From IMG/VR virus record IMGVR_UViG_3300045988_115807: DNA of 46,701 bases; one strand, 5' to 3'. Of this stretch, positions 5,018-45,596 are shown one piece after another (the first letter of the stretch is position 1; each line of letters opens with the position of its first letter). The DNA is from a virus. Lineage: Duplodnaviria > Heunggongvirae > Uroviricota > Caudoviricetes. The notes beneath the pieces were generated by a model. It saw only the letters and a program-made list of their open reading frames with translations, was not told the origin of the DNA and did not search any database. The translations under genes and the position numbers were made by a program.

Positions 5018-7589
5018 ACCGGTAGGCGATCTGGTCGTTGATTTAAGTCTGGATGCGGCCAGATTTGACGAGCAGATGGCCAGAGTCAGGCGTCATTTTT
5101 CCGGTACGGAAAGTGATGCGAAAAAAACAGCGGCAGTCGTTGAACAGTCGCTGAGCCGACAGGCGCTGGCTGCACAGAAAGCGGGGATTTCCGTCGGGCA
5201 GTATAAAGCCGCCATGCGTATGCTGCCTGCGCAGTTCACCGACGTGGCCACACAGCTTGCAGGGGGGCAGAATCCGTGGCTGATCCTGCTGCAACAGGGT
5301 GGTCAGGTGAAGGACTCCTTCGGCGGGATGATCCCCATGTTCAGGGGGCTTGCCGGTGCGATCACCCTGCCGATGGTGGGTATCACTTCGCTGGCGGTGG
5401 CGACCGGTGCGCTGGCGTATGCCTGGTATCAGGGTGACTCAACCCTGTCTAATTTCAACAAAACGCTGGTCCTTTCCGGTAATCAGGCGGGACTGACGGC
5501 AGATCGTATGCTGGTCCTGTCCAGAGCAGGGCAGGCGGCAGGGCTGACGTTTAACCAGACCAGCGAGTCACTGACGGCGCTGGTGAATGCCGGTGTGCGT
5601 GGTGGTGAGCAGTTTGAGGCAATCAGCCAGAGTGTGGCGCGTTTCTCCTCTGCATCCGGCGTGGAGGTGGACAAGGTCGCTGAAGCCTTCGGGAAGCTGA
5701 CCACTGACCCGACGTCGGGGTTGACGGCGATGGCGCGCCAGTTCCATAACGTGACGGCGGAACAGATTGCGTATGTTGCTCAGTTGCAGCGTTCCGGCGA
5801 TGGGGCCGGGGCATTGCAGGCGGCGAACGAGGCCGCAACGAAAGGGTTTGATGACCAGACCCGTAAACTGAAAGATAACATGGGTACGCTGGAGACCTGG
5901 GCAGACAAGACTGCACAGGCATTCAAATCCATGTGGGATGCGGTGCTGGATATTGGCCGCCCGGACTCCTCTGCAGATATGCTCGCCAAAGCTGAAAAGG
6001 CTTTTGATGAAGCGGATAAAAAATGGCAGTGGTATCAGAGCCGAAGCCACCGGCGCGGTAAAACTTCAGCATTTCTTGCCAATCTCCGGGGGGCATGGGA
6101 GAAGAGAGAGAATGCGCGACTTGGGCTTTCAGCCGCCACGTTGCAGGCAGATCTTGAAAAGGCCAGTGAGATGGCAGCAAAAGATCGGGCCGAGTCTGAG
6201 GCATCACGGCTGAAATATACCGAAGAGGCGCAGAAGGCTTACGAACGGCTGCAGACGCCGCTGGAGAAATATACCGCCCGTCAGGAAGAACTGAACAAGG
6301 CACTGAAAGACGGGAAAATCCTGCAGGCGGATTACAACACGCTGATGGCGGCGGCGAAAAAGGATTATGAAGCGACGCTGAAAAAGCCGAAACAGTCCGG
6401 CGTGAAGGTGTCTGCGGGCGATCGTCAGGAAGACAGTGCTCATGCTGCCCTGCTGACGCTTCAGGCAGAACTCCGGACGCTGGAGAAGCATGCCGGAGCG
6501 AATGAGAAAATCAGCCAGCAGCGCCGGGATTTGTGGAAGGCGGAGAGTCAGTTCGCGGTACTGGAGGAGGCGGCGCAACGTCGCCAGCTGTCTGCACAGG
6601 AGAAATCCCTGCTGGCGCATAAAGATGAGACGCTGGAGTACAAACGCCAGCTGGCTGCACTTGGCGACAAGGTTACGTATCAGGAGCGCCTGAACGCGCT
6701 GGCGCAGCAGGCGGATAAATTCGCACAGCAGCAACGGGCAAAACGGGCCGCCATTGATGCGAAAAGCCGGGGGCTGACTGACCGGCAGGCAGAACGGGAA
6801 GCCACGGAACAGCGCCTGAAGGAACAGTATGGCGATAATCCGCTGGCGCTGAATAACGTCATGTCAGAGCAGAAAAAGACCTGGGCGGCTGAAGACCAGC
6901 TTCGCGGGAGCTGGATGGCAGGCCTGAAATCCGGCTGGAGTGAGTGGAAAGAGAGCGCCACGGACAGCATGTCGCAGGTAAAAAGTGCAGCCACGCAGAC
7001 CTTTGATGGTATTGCACAGAATATGGCGGCGATGCTGACCGGCAGTGAGCAGAACTGGCGCAGCTTCACCCGCTCCGTGCTGTCCATGATGACAGAAATT
7101 CTGCTTAAGCAGGCAATGGTGGGGATTGTCGGGAGTATCGGCAGCGCCATTGGCGGGGCTGTTGGTGGCGGCGCATCCGCGTCAGGCGGTACAGCCATTC
7201 AGGCCGCTGCGGCGAAATTCCATTTTGCAACCGGAGGATTTACGGGAACCGGCGGCAAATATGAGCCAGCGGGGATTGTTCACCGTGGTGAATTTGTCTT
7301 CACGAAGGAGGCAACCAGCCGGATTGGCGTGGGAAATCTCTACCGGCTGATGCGCGGCTATGCGGAAGGTGGTTATGTGGGCGGTGCCGGAAGTCCGGCG
7401 CAGATGCGGCGGGCGGAAGGCATTAATTTTAATCAGAACAATCACGTGGTGATTCAGAACGACGGTACGAACGGGCAGATAGGTCCGGCTGCTCTGAAGG
7501 CGGTGTATGACATGGCCCGCAAGGGTGCCCGTGATGAAATTCAGACACAGATGCGTGATGGTGGCCTGTTCTCCGGAGGTGGACGATGA
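5010..7589 (+). CDS. H: tail tape measure protein H
   Basis: 859-aa ORF; N-terminus MAEPVGDLVVDLSLDAARFDEQMARVRRHF matches lambda gpH; position between T and M. Confidence 0.95.
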   Translation: MAEPVGDLVVDLSLDAARFDEQMARVRRHFSGTESDAKKTAAVVEQSLSRQALAAQKAGISVGQYKAAMRMLPAQFTDVATQLAGGQNPWLILLQQGGQVKDSFGGMIPMFRGLAGAITLPMVGITSLAVATGALAYAWYQGDSTLSNFNKTLVLSGNQAGLTADRMLVLSRAGQAAGLTFNQTSESLTALVNAGVRGGEQFEAISQSVARFSSASGVEVDKVAEAFGKLTTDPTSGLTAMARQFHNVTAEQIAYVAQLQRSGDGAGALQAANEAATKGFDDQTRKLKDNMGTLETWADKTAQAFKSMWDAVLDIGRPDSSADMLAKAEKAFDEADKKWQWYQSRSHRRGKTSAFLANLRGAWEKRENARLGLSAATLQADLEKASEMAAKDRAESEASRLKYTEEAQKAYERLQTPLEKYTARQEELNKALKDGKILQADYNTLMAAAKKDYEATLKKPKQSGVKVSAGDRQEDSAHAALLTLQAELRTLEKHAGANEKISQQRRDLWKAESQFAVLEEAAQRRQLSAQEKSLLAHKDETLEYKRQLAALGDKVTYQERLNALAQQADKFAQQQRAKRAAIDAKSRGLTDRQAEREATEQRLKEQYGDNPLALNNVMSEQKKTWAAEDQLRGSWMAGLKSGWSEWKESATDSMSQVKSAATQTFDGIAQNMAAMLTGSEQNWRSFTRSVLSMMTEILLKQAMVGIVGSIGSAIGGAVGGGASASGGTAIQAAAAKFHFATGGFTGTGGKYEPAGIVHRGEFVFTKEATSRIGVGNLYRLMRGYAEGGYVGGAGSPAQMRRAEGINFNQNNHVVIQNDGTNGQIGPAALKAVYDMARKGARDEIQTQMRDGGLFSGGGR

Positions 7590-18410: not shown

Positions 18411-19376
18411 TTAATTATCAGTAGATTGTTCCTCTAGTAACAACTCAATTCTGCTTAGTATTTCTTTAGATATTTTTCGGCTATCAATTTTTATAGTTAC
18501 AAAATTACCTTTATATCTAGCCGTGATCCCTTCCCCATATTTTTTCTCGTCTTTTGTTTTTTCCTCGTCGCCAACCAGAACAGAGTCAGATAATATTTGT
18601 ATAATCCGTGAAGCTTCTAAATCCTCGCCGTTTTTTTTAATTGCCAGAAGATGATGAGCAGCATTGCTCATGGCAGCCATGTTTTTTTTGTAGACCTTAA
18701 ACAAAGAATCTCCAGCACGAGCTGACAGTTCTCCTGGATGATTGAAGATAGCTAATATATCTTTTGGTAGACCAGCTGTATTAATACAGCGAGTGATAAT
18801 ATTTCTGTCTATATTTTCAGCCTCGGCTAATGCTTTAACGTTACCATCAAAGTCATTTAGCTTGCGTAAGTATCTCTTTCCTCTTTCGTATGCACTAATA
18901 GGCCTATAATCGTTACCAATTTGGGATAACCAATGCATCTGTTCATCGTCGAGATCACCTATTAAGACGCGATAGTCACATCCTGTTAATATCGCTGCTT
19001 TTCTTCTACGTGAGCCGTCAGCGACTTCAACGACTCCAGACACTTTTCTGGCGAAAGCTGGATTTTGTTGTCCAGACGTTAGAAAAGATGGGATTAAATC
19101 GGCTAGAGAGGATTCATTTAATAAATCTTGATCGCGTTCATTACCTAGCCATACCATTGTTGCCATTTCAACTTTATCTGCGGGAATTGTCTCTAACTTA
19201 AAGTTAACATTACGTCCGCATACTGGCAAAGTTATGCTGTTACCGGTTAATGAACTCAGTTGACGTTTTAAATCACCAACCATAGGTGATACGGGCTGAT
19301 GTTCAGGGGCATGATGATTATTACTCATAATGCGATTAATATCTGGAGCATTTTTTAGAAGAGAGCGCTGTTTCAT
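18411..19376 (-). CDS. sopB: partition protein SopB (ParB-like centromere-binding protein)
   Basis: ...ITLPVCGRNVNFKLE...WLGNERDQDLLNE...LIPSFLTSGQQNPAFARKVSGVVEVADGSRRRKAA...GNDYRPISAYERGKRY... closely parallels F-plasmid SopB from memory. Confidence 0.9.
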   Translation of the reverse strand: MKQRSLLKNAPDINRIMSNNHHAPEHQPVSPMVGDLKRQLSSLTGNSITLPVCGRNVNFKLETIPADKVEMATMVWLGNERDQDLLNESSLADLIPSFLTSGQQNPAFARKVSGVVEVADGSRRRKAAILTGCDYRVLIGDLDDEQMHWLSQIGNDYRPISAYERGKRYLRKLNDFDGNVKALAEAENIDRNIITRCINTAGLPKDILAIFNHPGELSARAGDSLFKVYKKNMAAMSNAAHHLLAIKKNGEDLEASRIIQILSDSVLVGDEEKTKDEKKYGEGITARYKGNFVTIKIDSRKISKEILSRIELLLEEQSTDN

Positions 19377-20542
19377 TATTCGTTCTCCCAGCGAGGTTTT
19401 ATTAGATCATCAAAAATTTCTCGGCAAACAGGGTCCCATATAGAAACAGCATTTCTCCATGCATTCAATGTTGAACGTTGGTTTGCTGCTTGTTCAAATA
19501 CTGTTCTCATTTTTATCTGGCCTTTACCTACTTCATCGGTAACGCGTACAACCTGACGTAATACCATTGATCCCCATGTATTTCTTATTTGTTCTTCCAT
19601 CCATCGTGATTGATTCCCTGTAGTGAGACTATATTTAGTCAGAAGTAAGCGAACGGTTGGCTCAAATCCACCTAGGTCAACGCTTTCCAATAGATCGAGA
19701 AGCATTGTGAAAAACTGTAGAACAGAAGCGTAATCAAATAATTCTGCAGGTGTAGCAACAACAATAACGTCAGCGGCACAAACAACGTTAATGGTTCCTG
19801 TACCGAGGTTCGGAGCACTATCTATAACGATAACATCGTAGTTATCCCAAACTGATTCAATAGCTGCGCGCAGCATAAGGTGTGGAGGATGAGGCAATTT
19901 ACCCTGAGCATGATATTGCATGAGATCTGTTTCTATACGATGTAAAGCTAGGCAGCTAGGGATAATGTCTAGCCCAGGCCAACATGTTGGCTTTATAGCA
20001 TATTCAGCGTTATCGCGTTCTCCTAAGTAAAATGGCAGTAAAGTATCCTCGGCATGGATATGTAAATCAGGAACATAACCGTGATACATAGAGGCCGTGC
20101 CTTGAGGATCGTTACCTTCAACCAAAAGAACACGATGACCTTGTAATGCTAACCATTGAGCTTGATGTACCGCAGACGATGTTTTATAAACGCCGCCTTT
20201 GTGTGACATAACGGCAAGCACAACAGGGTTTTTATCTTGTGGTCGTTGGTTTGGGTTGCCAAAAACTGCTCGCATACTGTTGATTTGATCTATGGTATAA
20301 CCAGCACGACGTTCAATTCTTCCTCTCATTTCAAAGTCAGGTGCAGGTAAACGCCCGCTCTTCTCAGCATCTCTAATTGCTTGAGGAGTTACACCAATTA
20401 AATCTGCTACTTCAGTTATACCCCATCGGCGGGTGATACGCCGAGCTTCAGGACTATCATCACCGAATTGAGCGATAGCAATTGCTTGGGTCATTTCTTG
20501 ACCTCTCGTAACACAATCTTGCAATAACTTTTTCAAAGACAT
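19376..20542 (-). CDS. sopA: partition ATPase SopA (ParA, Walker-type)
   Basis: ...AIAIAQFGDDSPEARRITRRW...HKGGVYKTS...LLVEGNDPQGTASMYHGYVPDLHIHAEDTLLPFYLGE...IDSAPNLG... near-colinear with F SopA from memory. Confidence 0.95.
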   Translation of the reverse strand: MSLKKLLQDCVTRGQEMTQAIAIAQFGDDSPEARRITRRWGITEVADLIGVTPQAIRDAEKSGRLPAPDFEMRGRIERRAGYTIDQINSMRAVFGNPNQRPQDKNPVVLAVMSHKGGVYKTSSAVHQAQWLALQGHRVLLVEGNDPQGTASMYHGYVPDLHIHAEDTLLPFYLGERDNAEYAIKPTCWPGLDIIPSCLALHRIETDLMQYHAQGKLPHPPHLMLRAAIESVWDNYDVIVIDSAPNLGTGTINVVCAADVIVVATPAELFDYASVLQFFTMLLDLLESVDLGGFEPTVRLLLTKYSLTTGNQSRWMEEQIRNTWGSMVLRQVVRVTDEVGKGQIKMRTVFEQAANQRSTLNAWRNAVSIWDPVCREIFDDLIKPRWENE

Positions 20543-21191: not shown

Positions 21192-23093
21192 ATGAGCAAA
21201 GTAAAAATCGGTGAATTAATAAACTCACTTGTTAGCGATGTTGAGTCAATAGATAACTCTGACCGTCCTCAAGGGGAGAAAACAAAAAAAATAAAGGCTG
21301 TTGCATTAAAATTTAAAAATGCATTATTTAATGACAAGCGAAAGTTTAGGGGGAAAGGATTAGAAAAAAGAATTACAGCCAACACATTCAATGCCTATAT
21401 GAGCAGGGCCAGAAAACGGTTTGATGATAAACTTCATCATAGCTTTGAAAAAAATATACATCGCCTATCTGAAAAGTATCCTTTATATAATGAGGAGCTA
21501 TTGTCATGGCTTTCTCTACCTGCTGCCGATATTCGCCAGAGAATGTCAGCTTTACAGGCAAAATTAAAATTAATTCTCCCTCTATCAGAAGATTTATCTA
21601 ATATCAGAATTGGCGATAACAAAAGTCATAATAAGTTATTGAAATTATCAAATAAATATAAAGAGTGGCAATTCGCCATTTCTGATTTAACTAGCGATAA
21701 CTGGAAAGATAAGCGCGATTATTTATATAAATTACTACAGCAAGGATCTGCCTTACTTGAGGAGTTGAATCAGCTAAAAGTTAACCATGAGATTCTCTAT
21801 CATCTTCAACTAAGCCCTGCCGAACGTGCATCTATCCAGCAACGATGGGCGGACGTTCTGCACAATAAGAAACGTAACGTGGTGGTCATTGATTACCCTA
21901 AATATATGCAAGCTATTTACGATATTATAAATAGCCCTGCTACATTAAATAATCTAAACACTCGTTCAGGTATGGCTCCTTTGGCATTTGCACTTGCTGC
22001 ATTGTCAGGAAGACGAATGATTGAGATTATGTATCAAGGTACATTTACTGTTTCTGGTAAGTATACCGTTGATTTTTTAGGCCAAGCTAAAAAAAGAACT
22101 TCTGATAATATAACCAGAAAAATATATACATTATGCGAAGCAAAAACATTTGTTTATTTAATAAATGTACTTCGCTCATGCCCAGCAGCATCTGATTTTG
22201 ATGATGTCGTTAAAGGTTATGGAGATAACGACACACGCTCTGAAAACGGACGTATTAATGCCATATTAGCAAAGGCTTTTAACCCGTGGGTTAAATCATT
22301 TTTTAAAGATGACCGCCGTGTTTATAAAGATAGTCGTGCTATTTATGCCCGTATTGCGTATGAAATGTTTTTCCGCGTAGATCCTCGTTGGAAAAACGTA
22401 GATGAAGATGTTTTCTTTATGGAAATTTTAGGCCATGACGATGAAAACACTCAATTACACTATAAGCAATTCAAGCTGGCCAACTTCTCAAAGACATGGA
22501 GGCCAAATACTGGAAACGAAAATACCAGGCTGGAAGCATTGCAGCAGCTTGATGACGAAATGCCTGGATTCGCCAGAGGAGATGCCGGGGTTCGTCTGCA
22601 TAACACAGTTAAGCAGCTGGTAGAGCAGGACCCCTCTATAAAAATCACGAACAGCACTCTAAGAGCGTTCAAATTTAGCCCAACAATGATTAGTCGATAC
22701 CTGGAATTTGCTGCTGATGCTCTGGGGCAATTTGTTGGCGAAAACGGACAATGGCAACTGAAAATAGATACTCCAGAAATCGTTATGCCTGACGAAGAAG
22801 AACTGGAAGCAATACCTGAACTGGCGGATGAATTATCAGAGGATGACGATCTGGATGACGACGAAATTGAGATAGAGGAAGAGGAAGAGGAAGAGGAAGA
22901 TAGCGTAGAAGAACAGCAACCGCCTGCACCTTCTTCGCCTGTATCTAAGCCGGTATTTAAGCCGGTGAGAAATATTGGTGATGGCTCATACGTTGTTGAG
23001 TTTCATTATAATGGCCAGAATTATGCGTGGTCCGGCAGTGCAAACAGCCCCATGTCAGCAATGCAGTTAGCATGGCTGACATATTTCGGTTAA
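21192..23093 (+). CDS. telN: protelomerase TelN (telomere resolvase)
   Basis: 633 aa; MSKVKIGELINSLVSDVESIDNSDRPQGEKTKKIKA...RSGMAPLAFALAALSGRRMIEIM...HDDENTQLHYKQFKLANF... matches N15 TelN from memory; acidic Glu/Asp-rich C-terminal stretch. Confidence 0.95.
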   Translation: MSKVKIGELINSLVSDVESIDNSDRPQGEKTKKIKAVALKFKNALFNDKRKFRGKGLEKRITANTFNAYMSRARKRFDDKLHHSFEKNIHRLSEKYPLYNEELLSWLSLPAADIRQRMSALQAKLKLILPLSEDLSNIRIGDNKSHNKLLKLSNKYKEWQFAISDLTSDNWKDKRDYLYKLLQQGSALLEELNQLKVNHEILYHLQLSPAERASIQQRWADVLHNKKRNVVVIDYPKYMQAIYDIINSPATLNNLNTRSGMAPLAFALAALSGRRMIEIMYQGTFTVSGKYTVDFLGQAKKRTSDNITRKIYTLCEAKTFVYLINVLRSCPAASDFDDVVKGYGDNDTRSENGRINAILAKAFNPWVKSFFKDDRRVYKDSRAIYARIAYEMFFRVDPRWKNVDEDVFFMEILGHDDENTQLHYKQFKLANFSKTWRPNTGNENTRLEALQQLDDEMPGFARGDAGVRLHNTVKQLVEQDPSIKITNSTLRAFKFSPTMISRYLEFAADALGQFVGENGQWQLKIDTPEIVMPDEEELEAIPELADELSEDDDLDDDEIEIEEEEEEEEDSVEEQQPPAPSSPVSKPVFKPVRNIGDGSYVVEFHYNGQNYAWSGSANSPMSAMQLAWLTYFG

Positions 23094-29600: not shown

Positions 29601-30629
29601 GCCGGTATTCCCTTTTCCTTCTGTGGCTGATTTCCGGTCATTATCCAGTGCGCAGGTGATTTTTGCCGCCGGGTACATGTTTACCAGTTGTTCCACAACA
29701 TGAACCATGTTATTAGCGGATACAGCGACAACCACAGCGTCAAAGCGTTTATCTTTTTTCGTGGCAAGCCAGATGGATGCACCAGTAGCAAAACCTTCTG
29801 TAACAGCGATGTTTTGCGCCCCTTTTAGCTCACCGATAACAAAGCAGGCACCGACGAAATCGCCGCTGGTTACGGCGCTGGTCTGGTATTTTCCACCTTG
29901 TTTGTCGATTCGCTGCCAACCCACAATACGACCATCGTAACGACCGTCCAGGTGAGCCAGAGGGATAGCCATATACGTGGTTGGCCCCCTGCTCCATTTT
30001 GCGCTGTCGTGACTGGTCACGCGACGCACATCACACGAATTAAAAACGTCACGAATACCTTTTTTAATCGCATATGGCCATGAGCCGTCTTCTGCAGGAG
30101 CATGTTCCCACGCGCTGTGGAATGCCAGCCATCCCAGCAAACGTTCATGGTCCATTTGGTTGTTTTTCAGGTCATTAATTCGTTTTTGTTCTTCACGGCG
30201 ACGACGTGCTTCGGCCTGACGTTCTATTCTTGCCCGTTCTTCTTCCGGTTGTGCGACCACGGTCGCATTATTCCGTTGTTGCTCACGGCGATATTCAGAA
30301 AACAGGAAGGAGAAACCGCTCCATGAGCCAGCATCGCTGCCTTTATGGACGAAGTTAATGAACGGGTAATCAATCCCTTTGCTGTGTTCCAGCCGGGAGT
30401 AAATTTCTACGCGTCCTTTGAGGCTCTTTTCGAGAGCTTCTGGAGATGTTTTATTGTATGAAGAGTAACGCTCAACACCCCCGCGAGGGTTGAGTTGGAT
30501 GTTGTCGGAACAGGCAGACCAGTTGATACCAGCCATCTGTGCCAGCTCGGTTAGTTCATCCCGTGCTGCTTCAATTAGCGAGAACGGATCGCTGCCAAAG
30601 CGATCCGCATAGAAATCGTTTAATGTCAT
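26634..30629 (-). CDS. repA: replication protein RepA (primase-helicase, N15 RepA-like)
   Basis: 1331-aa ORF; contains Walker-A-like GMGSGKST; size and position next to cB match N15 repA, whose 3' part is reported to contain the replication origin. Confidence 0.9.
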   Translation of the reverse strand: MTLNDFYADRFGSDPFSLIEAARDELTELAQMAGINWSACSDNIQLNPRGGVERYSSYNKTSPEALEKSLKGRVEIYSRLEHSKGIDYPFINFVHKGSDAGSWSGFSFLFSEYRREQQRNNATVVAQPEEERARIERQAEARRRREEQKRINDLKNNQMDHERLLGWLAFHSAWEHAPAEDGSWPYAIKKGIRDVFNSCDVRRVTSHDSAKWSRGPTTYMAIPLAHLDGRYDGRIVGWQRIDKQGGKYQTSAVTSGDFVGACFVIGELKGAQNIAVTEGFATGASIWLATKKDKRFDAVVVAVSANNMVHVVEQLVNMYPAAKITCALDNDRKSATEGKGNTGLRTGYEILSKFNDVRCVYPTFEDDPQMECSDFNDLHKLRGLRETARQLFATANRLKTGTDLLSLTLNRLKTIKRDNRRTFAKELLRAVDIGMLTCPVPNSPSDLFNMFCIVLREMGLENIYRATVKDHIARRLNKKCRIAQAPRSFSERITDPNKRPQHITYKRFETSVMTDDVLKYVQSLQGIVIVRAGMGSGKSTGLLRPLMHSSERGISVAHRVSLIGGLWEMMTEGKGVKTDILHYQDPGYQEMAPYASKLTICINSIVKNCWQPLMRQHDYFGFDEATQGLRAVLSGRAMENPVAVFNTLIDALARTEQHPIMVDADANDLLVDLAELAMKRREELGLPAWLQIHVIELPVDVRNRETGEPIRVFYTEKDRIMTEVVKAVSDGEKIMLATDSSTFAEDVTATLRMHFPGKKFLCVNQKNKPEPEVEAFTNQPKKMVKKYDGLIYSPSISSGVSIEQKHFDRHFGMFCGEVVPSDAVQMLRRDRTAKEFIIGFDKARAKRETDPQKIERAFAQALLATAGMNGELTDVVFDGDRISMGVANTDFTRMKIKAAAIEATARNDYASNMICIMHSDGYKVSPLATDYAANDIGKDLRKEARDIVWEQTLDLHLNTETPQESEREELLKKRALTLEEQAKLVRWDIENELKLPVEEGTLKFYFDGARDKVRRYETMLLDEVTARRYDREEAAINFTYTYRQAGQWQYFVVTAMTREQADDVFKTKFPGIIDHKVKATPTVEVGARGFYALKSATLRQYFIDCGINPETMTGEATQERLKFARDNLMTAERRDLLNNVLHIGGFMTPKGKPKVPEALFKNICDSLGLKTGKRRGRDGDKRPTLRFVEPESAAFMLDILVQRQKDGLTLKTRKAEKTAIEMDRDLDLNIYMDDKTRSTNEQVQNAPHSVISEALAVLPVAVPESWAMSALSSEELATMSSWSSASIAMTFASLYLTEFMDHLSSNELRRLREYITGNSSCSYEEQGAFYG
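30250..30266. repeat. sopC-like centromere palindrome (copy within the repA 5' region, 17/18 match)
   Basis: GTGCGACCACGGTCGCA(T); same dyad as the other four copies. Confidence 0.55.
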
Positions 30630-32494: not shown

Positions 32495-32737
32495 TTCAGG
32501 AAACCGTCGAAGCCAGAATTAAGGTATTCGGGGGTAAGAAATGAATATGTTATCTGGTGTCCAACTTGTGGTTACAGGACACGACCAGATAGTAATAAGC
32601 AGTCTGTAATTGCCGATTGGTATTTATCAAATCAGCCAGGTAATAAGCATATAGAAAATCTTTGGATTAAGCGTTACTTGGAAATCAGAGAGGGTGCGAC
32701 CGTGGTCGCACAAGAAAATGAAAATAACGCCATTTAA
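32495..32737 (+). CDS. small hypothetical protein with zinc-ribbon-like motif
   Basis: MFRKPSKPELRYSGVRNEYVIWCPTCGYRTRPDS...; internal start of ORF 32417-32737; no clear RBS. Confidence 0.3.
   Translation, partial: FRKPSKPELRYSGVRNEYVIWCPTCGYRTRPDSNKQSVIADWYLSNQPGNKHIENLWIKRYLEIREGATVVAQENENNAI
32694..32711. repeat. sopC-like centromere palindrome
   Basis: GTGCGACCGTGGTCGCAC: 8-bp inverted arms with a 2-bp spacer. Confidence 0.65.
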
Positions 32738-32944: not shown

Positions 32945-33544
32945 GTGACTAATCAGATTATTTACGACAGGAAACGGTCTGATGTAATGATTGACCTTGA
33001 AACAATGGGTACTAACACATGTGCTCCAATTGTTTCTATCGGGGCAGTGTTTTTTTCTCCAGAAAGTGAGGAATTAGGTCCTACTTTTTATGTACCAGTG
33101 AATCTCAGAAGCTCGATGTTGAATGGTGGTGTCGCCGATGGTGATACCATTTTATGGTGGTTGAAACAGAGCAAGGAAGCCAGAGCCGCAATTTGTACTA
33201 ATGATGCCCTTGATATTAAGGATGCACTTTTTGAATTATCACACTTTATTACTTGCCATGCATGTAATTTAAAAAAATTGAAAGTATGGGGAAATGGAGC
33301 AACGTTCGATAATGTAATTTTACGCGGTGCTTATGAGCGCGTTGGCTTAGCCTGTCCGTGGGAATATTTTAATGATCAGGATGTTCGAACAATCGTTAAC
33401 CTTGGTCAGTTTATTGGTTTTAATCCTAAAAAAGATATGCCATTTGATGGCGAACGACACAATGCCCTGGCTGATGCTATTCATCAGGCTAAATATGTAT
33501 CAGCAATTTTCTCCCGTCTTGTAAAAGGGCAAGGAGAATCGTAA
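32945..33544 (+). CDS. 3'-5' exonuclease, DEDDh (DnaQ/RNase T-like) family
   Basis: GTG start with GAGGAG RBS; motifs MIDLETMG (Exo I), WGNGATFD (Exo II), HNALADA (Exo III). Confidence 0.8.
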   Translation: MTNQIIYDRKRSDVMIDLETMGTNTCAPIVSIGAVFFSPESEELGPTFYVPVNLRSSMLNGGVADGDTILWWLKQSKEARAAICTNDALDIKDALFELSHFITCHACNLKKLKVWGNGATFDNVILRGAYERVGLACPWEYFNDQDVRTIVNLGQFIGFNPKKDMPFDGERHNALADAIHQAKYVSAIFSRLVKGQGES

Positions 33545-37463: not shown

Positions 37464-37481
37464 GTGCGACCACGGTCGCAC
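37464..37481. repeat. sopC-like centromere palindrome
   Basis: GTGCGACCACGGTCGCAC (extends to CTGTGCGACCACGGTCGCACAG). Confidence 0.65.
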
Positions 37482-37566
37482 AGCACAAAAACGAAAAAGC
37501 TTGGCAAAATTACGGTTTTTAGTTATTGTTTTGTTAAGTTGGGTTTTTTGTACCCAACAGCCAACA

Positions 37567-37592
37567 AGCCGCCTTTATGGCGGTTTTTTTGT
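37567..37592 (+). terminator. rho-independent terminator
   Basis: AGCCGCCTTTATGGCGGTT followed by TTTTTTG. Confidence 0.6.
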
Positions 37593-37725
37593 GCCTGAAA
37601 AGTGGGCGCAGGACAAGTTGCAGCTTGTCCTGCGGTCAACCCATGCCAGAGCTATAGGCTGAACCTAAAGCCCACCCGCGATGCGCATCGCCGGGTTAGC
37701 TTACCCAGGCAAAAAAATAATAGCT

Positions 37726-39170: not shown

Positions 39171-39667
39171 TGCAGTCATCATTACGCAAAGCTGTCGCAA
39201 CTGCTATTGGTGGCGGGGCTATTGCCATAGCATCTGTGCTCATCTCTGGTCCGAGCGGCAACGATGGTCTGGAAGGTGTGAGACATAACCCCTACAAAGA
39301 CATCGTTGGTGTATGGACTGTATGTTACGGGCATACAGGAAAAGACATTATGCTCGGTAAAACGTATACCGAAGCAGAATGCAAAGCTCTCCTGAATAAA
39401 GACCTTGCTACTGTCGCCAGACAAATTAACCCGTACATCAAAGTCGATATACCGGAAACAACGCGTGGTGCTCTTTACTCGTTCGTTTACAACGTGGGTG
39501 CAGGCAATTTCAGAACATCGACACTTCTTCGCAAAATCAACCAGGGCGATATCAAAGGTGCATGTGATCAACTACGTCGCTGGACATATGCTGGCGGCAA
39601 GCAATGGAAAGGGCTGATGACTCGCCGTGAGATTGAGCGTGAAGTCTGTTTGTGGGGGCAGCAATGA
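39167..39667 (+). CDS. SAR endolysin (T4-type lysozyme, GH24)
   Basis: N-terminal signal-anchor-release-like segment [20 protein letters not shown] followed by lysozyme-like domain (…VCYGHTG…); start overlaps the holin stop. Confidence 0.85.
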
Positions 39668-40131
39668 GCAGAGTAACCGCAATTATTTCCGCACTGGTTA
39701 TCTGCATCATCGTCTGCCTGTCGTGGGCTGTTAATCATTACCGTGATAACGCCATCGCCTACAAAGAACAGCGTGATAAAAAAGTCAGTGAGCTGAAGCA
39801 GGCGACCGCCACCATCGCTGACATGCAGCAGCGTCAGCGTGATGTTGCTGCGCTCGATGCAAAATACACGAAGGAGTTGGCTGATGCGAAAGCTGAAAAT
39901 GATGCTCTTCGGCGCAAGCTTGATAATGGTGGTCGGGTGCTCGTCAAAGGAAAATGCTCTGTGCCATCCTCAGCCGAAACCTCCAGCGCCTCCGGCATGG
40001 GCAATGATGCCACCGTCGAACTCTCTCCAGTTGCTGGACGAAACGTTCTCGGTATCCGGGACGGAATCATCAGAGACCAGACAGCACTGAGAACGCTTCA
40101 GGAATACATCAAGACGCAATGCCCGAATTAA
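39664..40131 (+). CDS. i-spanin Rz
   Basis: [24 protein letters not shown]... N-terminal TM anchor followed by coiled-coil; position after endolysin. Confidence 0.8.
39884..40090 (+). CDS. o-spanin Rz1 (lipoprotein embedded in the +1 frame of Rz)
   Basis: [22 protein letters not shown]... lipobox VVGC followed by Pro-rich [16 protein letters not shown], like lambda Rz1. Confidence 0.7.
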
Positions 40132-40172
40132 TCCCTCTGTATCAAAAACGAACTCAATTTGTTGGATAGTGA

Positions 40173-40484
40173 ATGAAAATTTATATTGCCGGGCCAATGA
40201 CTGGATATGAGAACTTTAATCGTGACGCCTTTAATAAAGAGGCAGATCGTTTGTCACGACATGGTCACTCTGTCTTGAATCCAGCCACTTTGCCTAATGG
40301 TCTGACACAACGTGAATACATGGATATTTGCTTTGCAATGCTTCGTTGTGCTGATGCTATTTTGATGCTTCCTGGCTGGAAAGCGTCTGCTGGAGCAACT
40401 GCTGAGTATCATTACGCATACAAGATGGAGATGCCGGTATTCACTACGCTGAATTACCCGCCAGCTTGTTCCTCTGTAGCATAA
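40173..40484 (+). CDS. DUF4406 / nucleoside 2-deoxyribosyltransferase-like protein
   Basis: MKIYIAGPMTGYENFNRDAFNKEADRLSRHGHSVLNPA... N-terminal IYIAGPMTG motif is characteristic of this Rossmann-like family. Confidence 0.65.
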   Translation: MKIYIAGPMTGYENFNRDAFNKEADRLSRHGHSVLNPATLPNGLTQREYMDICFAMLRCADAILMLPGWKASAGATAEYHYAYKMEMPVFTTLNYPPACSSVA

Positions 40485-40503
40485 AAATCTCTTTGTTTCT
40501 CGT

Positions 40504-40521
40504 GTGCGACCGTGGTCGCAC
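40504..40521. repeat. sopC-like centromere palindrome
   Basis: GTGCGACCGTGGTCGCAC. Confidence 0.65.
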
Positions 40522-40722
40522 ATTAAATACCGCGCTGCATCGTCGCCGTATTTCCGCATTAACCATGACCGTAGCCCGACGGGGAACTCCTCTGCGCGAG
40601 TGTGCGGAAATAATCAAAAACGATGCACACCGGGTTTTTACCGCGCTAATGATTCGCGGGTTTGTCCCTCATGCTCGCCAGTCCTGTGCGAGGGTGGAAG
40701 AAACAGGGCATGTATTCAGGAG

Positions 40723-40740
40723 CGTGCGACCGTGGTCGCA
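40723..40740. repeat. sopC-like centromere palindrome
   Basis: GTGCGACCGTGGTCGCAC. Confidence 0.65.
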
Positions 40741-40764
40741 CGGTATCTTTGTCAGGAGGTTTTG

Positions 40765-41079
40765 ATGAAAGAGTTGCAAAAAATTAATTCAATAATGGAA
40801 AGGTTAAGTGCTCTTGAGCGTAAGCTGGACGATTGTGGAAAGCTGTGTGTTGAAAAGCAAAATGAGCTTTACCGGGAATTTTTTACAATCGTAAGTGAGC
40901 TGATGCCAATTGTTAATAACTGCCTGATGACATCCAGATTTTTTAATGTCGATGCTACTACATCCAGAAAATTTTCTGTGAAAATTCAAGAAAGGGTTTC
41001 TGGTAGTGTGACAAGAGAGATGGCTGAACAGTTGGTGGCAATGAGCAATAAAACAAAAAGAAAAAAGCATTGCTTGTAA
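40765..41079 (+). CDS. hypothetical protein (104 aa)
   Basis: AGGAGGT RBS 5 nt upstream; MKELQKINSIMERLSALERKLDDCGKL...; the upstream part of ORF 40504-41079 is judged non-coding. Confidence 0.5.
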   Translation: MKELQKINSIMERLSALERKLDDCGKLCVEKQNELYREFFTIVSELMPIVNNCLMTSRFFNVDATTSRKFSVKIQERVSGSVTREMAEQLVAMSNKTKRKKHCL

Positions 41080-41129
41080 CAGCAAATCAGCTTTCAGGGC
41101 GCGTTGACTTTCAGGTGTTGCGGCATGCA

Positions 41130-41369
41130 GATGATAATTATTATCATTGCGGGTCCTTTCCAGTGATCCGACAGGTTACGGGGCGGAAGGCGCGCGGGTT
41201 TTCGCTATTTATGAAAATTTTCCGGTTTAAGGCGTTTCCGTTCTTCTTCTCCGTAACTTAATGTTTTTATTTAAAACACCCCCTGAAAAGAAAGGAAACG
41301 ACAGGTGCTGAAAACAGGCCTTTTGGCCTCTGTCGTTTCCTTTCTCTGTTTTTGTCCGTGGAATGAACA
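41130..41369 (+). other. cos region (cosQ-cosN-cosB); predicted 12-nt cohesive end GGGCGGAAGGCG at 41181-41192
   Basis: Sequence aligns base-for-base with my recollection of the lambda cos junction (…GATCCGACAGGTTACG | GGGCGG… CGCGGGTTTTCGCTATTTATGAAAATTTTCCGG…, R3/R2/R1-like GTTTCC repeats) except within the cohesive-end dodecamer and a few cosB positions. Confidence 0.8.
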
Positions 41370-41889
41370 ATGGAAGTCAACAAAAAGCAGCTGGCTGAAA
41401 TTTTCGGTGCGAGTATCCGTACCATTCAGAACTGGCAGGAGCAGGGAATGCCCGTTCTGCGAGGCGGTGGAAAGGGTAATGAGGTGCTTTATGACTCTGC
41501 CGCCGTCATAAAATGGTATGCCGAAAGGGATGCTGAAATTGAGAACGAAAAGCTGCGCCGGGAGGTTGAAGAATTACGGCTGGCCAGCGAGGCAGATCTT
41601 CACCCCGGAACACTTGAATTTGAGCGCCATCGCCTGACTCGTGCTCAGGCGACGGCGCAGGAACTGAAAAATGCCAAAGAATCGGCTGAAGTGGTGGAAA
41701 CCGCATTCTGTACTTTCGTGCTGTCGCGTATAGCAAGGGAAATATCCAGTATTCTCGACGGTATTCCTCTGTCGGTGCAGCGACGTTTTCCTGAGCTGGA
41801 TAACCGGCATATTGATTTCCTGAAACGGGATATCATCAAAGCCATGAACAAAGCAGCCGCGCTGGATGAACTGATACCGGGGTTGCTGA

Positions 41890-41915
<26 letters not shown>
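41370..41915 (+). CDS. nu1: terminase small subunit Nu1
   Basis: MEVNKKQLAEIFGASIRTIQNWQEQGMPVLRGGGKGNEVLYDSAAVIKWY... near-identical to lambda Nu1 (181 aa). Confidence 0.95.

Positions 41916-45596
<3,681 letters not shown>

Follow-up and report, generated by a model that had tools for sequence, protein, structure and literature searches.

The gap between positions 40485 and 40764 of the window, by which we mean the whole 46,701-nucleotide stretch of DNA analysed here, is a mosaic joint within the Q-dependent late operon, a patchwork of three independent parts: an 18-bp palindrome on either side and, between them, a non-coding module of roughly 180 bases, common to phages lambda, 434 and 21, DLP12 and the Stx phages and present in most E. 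coli phages of the lambda kind. The explanation that we favour, and consider likely, is that the joint combines two SopB sites with a lambdoid module and that the pair of sites is a product of recombination. The sequence identities, the distribution of the parts and the independent linkage of each palindrome are established; SopB binding at both gap palindromes is predicted from their identity with the N15 sites, and for the module we infer a role at the RNA level, as we do the history of recombination.

The phage-plasmid and the genes around the gap

The window (46.7 kb) is a linear phage-plasmid of the N15-like kind (Ravinvirus), with a nucleotide identity to N15 of about 73-77% across most of its length. 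A profile search (Pfam) of the window proteins identified a protelomerase (21192-23093), SopB (18411-19376, minus strand; SoPB_HTH, E = 7e-25) and SopA (19376-20542, minus strand; ParA-type ATPase domains). The SopB of the window is 73% identical to that of N15, and the two differ at four positions within the specificity segment, which corresponds to N15 residues 179-200 (PMC2910045). We predict that SopA and SopB of the window are the partition proteins that act on the palindromes described below. The nearest phage records are YDC107_1 and PhiR46_1, the latter annotated with telL/telR and ParA/ParB. YDC107_1 (L001, GenBank CP025712.1) is 46,701 bp long, equal in length to the window, and is 93-99% identical to it in the aligning segments (mostly 95-98%), in a different arrangement: it contains an inverted duplication of the protelomerase-repA region and is without the tail-fibre/sop region, which looks like assembly read-through of a hairpin telomere.

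The gap lies between the stop codon (40484) of a DUF4406 gene and the ATG at 40765. The DUF4406 gene (40173-40484, plus strand; PF14359, E = 3.7e-34) is the homologue of N15 gene 57, with 77% nucleotide identity to N15 44229-44498. The ORF that follows the island (40765-41079, plus strand, 104 aa) is what is left of a 286-aa phrog_2571 protein after a frameshift and a 3' deletion. The full-length phrog_2571 gene is found in an E. coli MS1657 prophage (L006 20593-21453) and in PhiR46_1, and in both of these the island is followed by this gene and a phrog_3054 gene. Relative to them, one G is missing from the window at about 41066, so that the ORF ends at 41079; divergence sets in after 41116, and everything from 41117 to cos is deleted, including the remainder of the phrog_2571 gene, the phrog_3054 gene and a second copy of the module.

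The first-pass annotation had found no convincing coding frame in the gap and had judged the downstream ORF plausible from its internal ATG, and we come to the same view on both points. A frame of 191 aa is open from GTG 40504 to 41079, and one could suppose that translation of 40504-40764 extends the product of the downstream ORF at its N terminus. The upstream part of the gap-crossing ORFs (40504-41079 and 40466-40765), however, has no Pfam match, and homologues of the interior differ from one another by indels of 1 nt and about 8-9 nt, so that the reading frame is not conserved. Locus L009 carries an identical downstream ORF behind a frame-shifting 1-nt indel, while L010 carries another ORF after the second palindrome. 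ATG 40765 is preceded by a strong Shine-Dalgarno sequence (AGGAGG, 40754-40759, plus strand), and in the RefSeq annotation the gene begins at the equivalent ATG. We reject the coding extension because of the indels, both among the interior homologues and in L009, and give it next to no credence.

Two SopB-type palindromes and the origin of the pair

That the gap is bracketed by two palindromes of the centromere type was also part of the earlier description, and the present analysis agrees with it. The 18-mer GTGCGACCGTGGTCGCAC, a palindrome of the form GTGCGACC-GT-GGTCGCAC, occurs exactly at 40504-40521 (IR-a) and again at 40724-40741 (IR-b), with the two centres 220 bp apart; IR-a starts 19 nt past the DUF4406 stop codon and IR-b ends 23 nt ahead of ATG 40765. 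Its arms are those of N15 IR1-IR4, whose sequences are given as used for an artificial N15 centromere (PMC7205306), and both gap palindromes fit the inverted repeat GTGCGACC-NN-GGTCGCAC of that class exactly. As in N15, the sites share their replicon with the genes for the cognate SopA and SopB. N15 SopB forms foci on the IR sites, which F SopB does not use (PMC7205306), and a single nucleotide in each half-site distinguishes the sites of N15 from those of F (PMC2910045).

Three more copies of the 18-mer, with no more than 1-2 changes, start at 30251, 32694 and 37464, and a search with the 18-mer returned 10 strand-matches against 0.04 expected from shuffles. The sites are dispersed at conserved positions (in repA, after Q, before the late promoter and near cos): in N15 the four copies are at 33479 (in repA), 35930 (after Q), 41124 (just before the late promoter) and 45561, and in the window they are at 30251, 32694, 37464, 40504 and 40724. 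The putative SopB site at 30251-30268, within repA and with one mismatch at an outer position, would be the equivalent of IR1, that at 32694-32711, downstream of the Q-like gene, the equivalent of IR2, and that at 37464-37481, upstream of the late promoter, the equivalent of IR3. This last site is followed after about 20 bp by a late-promoter-like sequence and then by a strong hairpin with a T-run (37464-37600 region), a layout that mirrors that of IR3 and the late promoter in N15. IR4 lies in N15 between gene 58 (dcm methylase) and gene 59. Because IR4 is downstream of the DUF4406 gene 57 in N15 and directly after the DUF4406 gene in the N15-like contig L136, we identify the island, by its gene neighbourhood, as the putative IR4 locus with the site present twice, and the gap palindromes as predicted SopB centromere sites of the N15 type.

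On this identification, a SopB dimer bound at each palindrome would nucleate a complex of SopB, which SopA would use to partition the prophage. The five sites would belong to a dispersed centromere in which each is one seed of the partition complex, and the pair would form a locally doubled loading point, spanning 220 bp (about 21 helical turns), inside the late operon. On the same reading, the DNA between the palindromes does not belong to the centromere, and the module was not acquired for partition. Ravin, Rech and Lane reportedly described, in 2008, an effect of Sop on late expression.

Two further resemblances to the palindrome were seen. The IMG/VR contig L134 contains, at 7220-7400, an intact SopB-type palindrome followed by about five tandem 27-nt repeats, each with a half-site-like GTCGCA(C/T)GG. 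In the window, a segment inside the module (TCCTGTGCGAGGGTGG, 40682-40697, on the 5' side of the helix P5 described below) resembles the left half-palindrome and its flank at 13 of 16 nt; this likeness is possibly due to chance or to a microhomology that helped to place a palindrome beside the module.

Each of the two palindromes is linked to the module independently of the other. IR-a accompanies the 3' flank of the DUF4406 gene, and in L007 (a plasmid) and L008 (a chromosome) the order DUF4406 gene, IR-a and module is followed directly by cos, without IR-b. The module with IR-b and without IR-a is found in L009, L111, L027, L028, L130, L032, L096 and L064, and the sequence after IR-b varies among them. 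IR-b belongs with the downstream gene and the right side of the island, and it travels with a 15-nt linker, CATGTATTCAGGAGC (40709-40723), in the subfamily that combines the core module with IR-b; the linker is conserved beside IR-b in L009, L010, L111, L027, L028, L130 and L096, whose right flanks are all different. In contigs of the L152 type, half a module adjoins a palindrome that has cos about 65 bp away. Because either palindrome occurs alone with the module, we regard the pair as the product of recombination and not as a unit. The double-site layout does not look purpose-built: its history, as we reconstruct it, would be that an arrangement "DUF4406 - site - module" was joined to an arrangement "module - site - downstream gene" by homologous recombination through the module that they shared. 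We also considered an insertion with target-site duplication, such as a MITE, and rejected it since each palindrome is found beside the module where the other is missing; on reading the alignment, no terminal inverted repeats were seen at the ends of the module.

The island had been suggested as the principal centromere, which our results do not support, since nothing singles out the pair as such. A reading of all 280 bp of the island as a dedicated principal centromere, outweighing the other three sites, has in its favour that this is the sole place in the window with two clustered sites, that 220 bp corresponds to about 21 helical turns and would, by arithmetic alone, put both sites on one face of the helix, and that most plasmids of the clade have both sites (80% or more of the island query is covered in 23 plasmid records, compared with 25 records that contain the window sopB). 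We nevertheless hold it to be quite unlikely. The interior is a module found across lambdoid phages in thousands of genomes, almost all of them without sopB, and it is absent from N15, which manages with a single IR4. Either site is found alone with the module, and L007, a plasmid record with the shared late region, has IR-a only. IR-a carries 1-2 changes in the N15-like relatives L117, L192, L195 and L197 and is therefore dispensable in some N15-like relatives. Moreover, an island identical in layout and nearly so in sequence is present in integrated lambda-like prophages.

The best example of the latter is the E. coli MS1657 prophage (L006 20332-20569), in which the island is 99.8% identical to that of the window and both palindromes are intact. 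The prophage is integrated and lambda-like, with int, N, cI, cII and Q, and no sop genes were found in the 41 kb of it that were examined. The full island is present in 25 genomes, 11 of the occurrences being chromosomal among the matches listed, while the window sopB was found at just two chromosomal places in the whole collection. Since intact palindromes adjoin cos in ordinary lambdoid prophages (L006 and L009), the presence of a palindrome alone is no proof of selection for partition. Other copies are altered: in L366 (chromosomal, 1532-1770) IR-a has two arm mutations, and in L027, a NinB-YbcO-RusA-Q lambdoid prophage by its Pfam matches, IR-b has one. In effect, SopB sites also end up in integrated prophages to which they are of no use. 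That such sites next to cos act there as orphan centromeres, titrating SopB and destabilising incoming N15-like plasmids, we consider the less likely reading.

Could the palindromes instead be mainly RNA hairpins or terminators at the boundaries of gene cassettes (morons), with their match to SopB sites incidental? The N15 annotation lists IR4 as a putative rho-independent terminator, and IR-b was called in a loose terminator scan; furthermore, the palindromes lie exactly at mosaic junctions, also in lambdoid prophages without sop. Set against this, all 16 of the 16 arm positions are those of experimentally used SopB sites, and the sequence recurs in 4-5 unrelated contexts per N15-like genome, more than a generic terminator calls for. 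The T-tracts, too, are weak, and IR-a was not called by the same scan. The state of IR-b bears on the question as well. In a sample of IMG/VR loci drawn by a 14-mer of the module and unselected for palindrome integrity, IR-b is intact in all of the 3-4 loci that carry, or possibly carry, late-region sequence of the window, but mutated in 6 of the 8 without it, these lineages being few and non-independent and L027 being the one locus of the 8 confirmed by gene content as an ordinary lambdoid prophage; nucleotide homology sorted the palindrome-bearing IMG/VR loci into N15-like and lambda-like only partly. This pattern suggests that the sites may be kept where SopB is present and drift elsewhere, and we think it unlikely that the palindromes are mainly terminators.

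If the palindromes are SopB sites that came together by recombination, as we favour, the dispersed centromere of N15-like elements is not fixed, and its sites are gained, duplicated and lost through the mosaic recombination of lambdoid late regions. Loci with one site, two sites or decayed sites would then form a natural series for asking how many sites a linear plasmid needs, and where.

A lambdoid module at the lysis-packaging junction

The core of the module is 177 bp long (40532-40708, plus strand), beginning with GCGCTG and ending with GGAAGAAACAGGG. Homologues are found in 424 phage records, including the lambda-type phages HK629 and HK630, 434, 21 and a large number of Stx phages. The module is also present in 3182 of 5426 complete E. 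coli genomes (about 59%). The window sopB occurs in 15 of these same complete genomes, so that nearly all carriers of the module are without sopB; the N15 genome has no copy of the module. In the lambda-type phages the module is found on the upstream side of bor, a leftward gene, in the K-12 prophage DLP12 between borD and ybcV, and in 434 and 21 between bor and small cassettes that precede cos; in L007 and L008 it abuts cos. For lambda we estimate its place, from the coordinates of HK629, at about 46.87-47.04 kb. In the Stx phage Min27 (L367 1801-1990), which is short-tailed and 933W-like, it lies between bor and the small terminase gene. Because the packaging system of Min27 is a different one, we conclude that the module tracks the junction between the lysis (or bor) genes and the packaging genes, independently of the type of packaging and of the lambda cos.

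An alignment of 60 distinct copies defines the module sharply. Its left end is always GCGCTG (window 40532) and its right end is GGAAGAAAC(C/A)GG(A/G) (window about 40708), and these ends are constant in at least six unrelated left contexts and at least seven unrelated right contexts. Within the module a 22-nt stretch, AATAAT(C/T)AAAAACGATGCACAC, is essentially invariant, while the loops and the middle third are variable. By its boundaries we judge the module to be a discrete, self-contained unit. At the lysis-packaging junction, lambda and its relatives have in common a non-coding module with sharp boundaries, unannotated in the curated records examined.

Over its first 107 nt the module has a homologue, with 82-83% identity, in the region upstream of bor in lambda, HK629 and DLP12 (borD-ybcV), where the conserved 3' hairpin, GGAAGAAACCGG, is also present. 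That region differs in that the module there stands beside the leftward bor gene and that a leftward promoter is predicted within it in the annotation of lambda and of HK629, near-consensus according to the annotators of the latter. This promoter points to uses at the level of DNA in some members of the module family. It was rejected as an explanation of the whole module, given that it depends on bases specific to lambda and that its hexamers are not conserved in the window, where the corresponding bases are CGGTCA...TACGGC (minus strand) and not promoter-like; a promoter scan of the island called none.

Other candidates were considered for the identity of the module. The Pas sRNAs of EPEC prophages were rejected, as they adjoin holin/lysozyme genes or the Q gene and so belong to another locus. 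A literature search for an sRNA of the bor region, or a transcript feature of lambda there, found nothing. Scanning the genome collection with the 14-mer AAAACGATGCACAC gave, among the matches listed, chance-looking matches in unrelated taxa.

Some genomes have two copies of the module, 91-94% alike, that bracket the phrog_2571/phrog_3054 gene pair: L006 (20360-20540 and 22144-22325), L001 and L018. In all three the second copy precedes cos, and these genomes look like the outcome of cassette insertion or exchange by recombination between module copies.

The gap had been thought to be possibly a structured RNA, a suggestion that may hold for the interior alone. RNAalifold folds the module into the helices P1 (7 bp, 40537-43 with 40620-26), P2 (11 bp, 40549-59 with 40602-12), P3 (5 bp, 40570-75 with 40594-98) and P5 (5 bp, 40683-87 with 40703-07), and in the variable middle the helices P4a (40632-34 with 40666-68) and P4b (40641-45 with 40655-59) are predicted. 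P4b, in which CCGCG pairs with CGCGG, is the GC-rich dyad noted earlier, which is thus real. Standard pairs make up 98.4% of the cells, a share that falls to 30-61% if the 3' partners are shifted by 1-3 columns. Cells changed on both sides of a pair number 33 against 14.5 in shuffles (0 of 500 shuffles reach 33), counts that may reflect few haplotypes and their recombinants, the aligned sequences being 80-95% alike and mosaic. Double changes occur in four helix pairs, with a covariation score of 0.127 compared with 0.093 in shuffles, among closely related and recombining sequences, in which covariation comes out too high: one pair in P5 is GC in 26 sequences and UA in 24, and two pairs in P2 show CG/UA and CG/GC swaps. 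The P4b hairpin is enclosed by a short GGG/CCC helix in most variants, and it is formed by at least five different stem sequences; the terminator scan did not call it. G-U pairs account for about 279 of 1846 cells (about 15%); because these would be C-A mismatches on the opposite strand, the strand of the late transcript (plus) fits better, and the alifold energies give it a modest advantage (-88.6 for the plus strand and -79.0 for the minus strand). Against the suggestion stand the folding energy of the single sequence, which is ordinary (z = -1.1 on the plus strand and -0.4 on the minus strand), and the covariance-model scan that had been proposed as a check: run with Rfam 15 over 39500-42000 at E <= 10, it gave no match inside 40485-40764.

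The counterpart of an RNA reading is that the interior is functionless, an ancestral spacer or linker that has been kept alike by frequent homologous recombination among lambdoid phages and whose helices arose by chance. The module is indeed the shared stretch through which different flanks are joined, and in L006, L001 and L018 its two copies bracket a two-gene cassette; the ordinary folding energy and the highly variable middle part also speak for this reading. On the other hand, its ends are constant to the nucleotide in all of the left and right contexts counted above, and this constancy suggests that internal insertions are not tolerated. The 22-nt stretch is invariant amid variable loops, P2 and P5 show compensatory changes, the P4b hairpin is kept with different sequences, and the module is kept at the lysis-packaging junction even where the terminases are unrelated. 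We regard a functionless linker as a possibility of some weight, though not a likely one.

It is plausible from the folding models that the module is a structured RNA element of the late transcript. It would be transcribed as part of the late message and would probably fold, in three helix domains; as a guess, it might serve in processing or stabilisation at the boundary between the lysis and packaging messages. We tentatively propose, as a possibility in its own right, that the interior of the island is an unrecognised, conserved, structured and cis-acting RNA module of the lambdoid late operon that marks the lysis-packaging junction in lambda, DLP12, the Stx phages and more than half of the complete E. 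coli genomes, and that neither Rfam nor the curated phage annotations examined contain; the orphan SopB centromeres near cos mentioned above are the less likely alternative to it. Should the module prove to function as an RNA, a phage operon that is among the most thoroughly studied would gain a new element.

Comparison with N15 IR4, F sopC and moron boundaries

The closest known counterpart of the gap palindromes is N15 IR4. The 8-bp arms and the central dinucleotide are identical in the window sites, the place in the genome is the same, downstream of the DUF4406 gene and upstream of cos, and in both cases the cognate SopA and SopB belong to the same replicon. Unlike N15, the window has two copies, 220 bp apart and separated by a lambdoid module that N15 does not have, whereas the dcm methylase gene 58 and the gene 59 of N15 are missing from the window. 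The orientation of IR-b, judged by its centre and flanks, is also opposite to that of IR4: together with 2 nt on either side, IR-b is the reverse complement of IR4 and its flanks at 22 of 22 nt.

The sopC centromere of the F plasmid is built from the same class of binding palindrome for a ParB-type protein (SopB). In contrast to the window, with its two sites 220 bp apart out of five dispersed ones, sopC is a tight tandem array of 10 copies (PMC7205306), and an artificial N15 array was built at 43-bp spacing for comparability with sopC (PMC7205306). We rejected a clustered centromere of the sopC type for the island, which has just two sites, at a distance of 220 bp and enclosing unrelated DNA.

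Finally, the gap may be compared with the boundaries of morons, a concept due to Juhala and Hendrix in which lambdoid gene cassettes are bounded by their own signals. The likeness is that cassettes (bor, DUF4406, phrog_2571, DUF3950, ybcV and others) are inserted exactly at the edges of the module or beside the palindromes. The difference is that the module is not the cassette signal of any single gene, but persists whatever its neighbours are.
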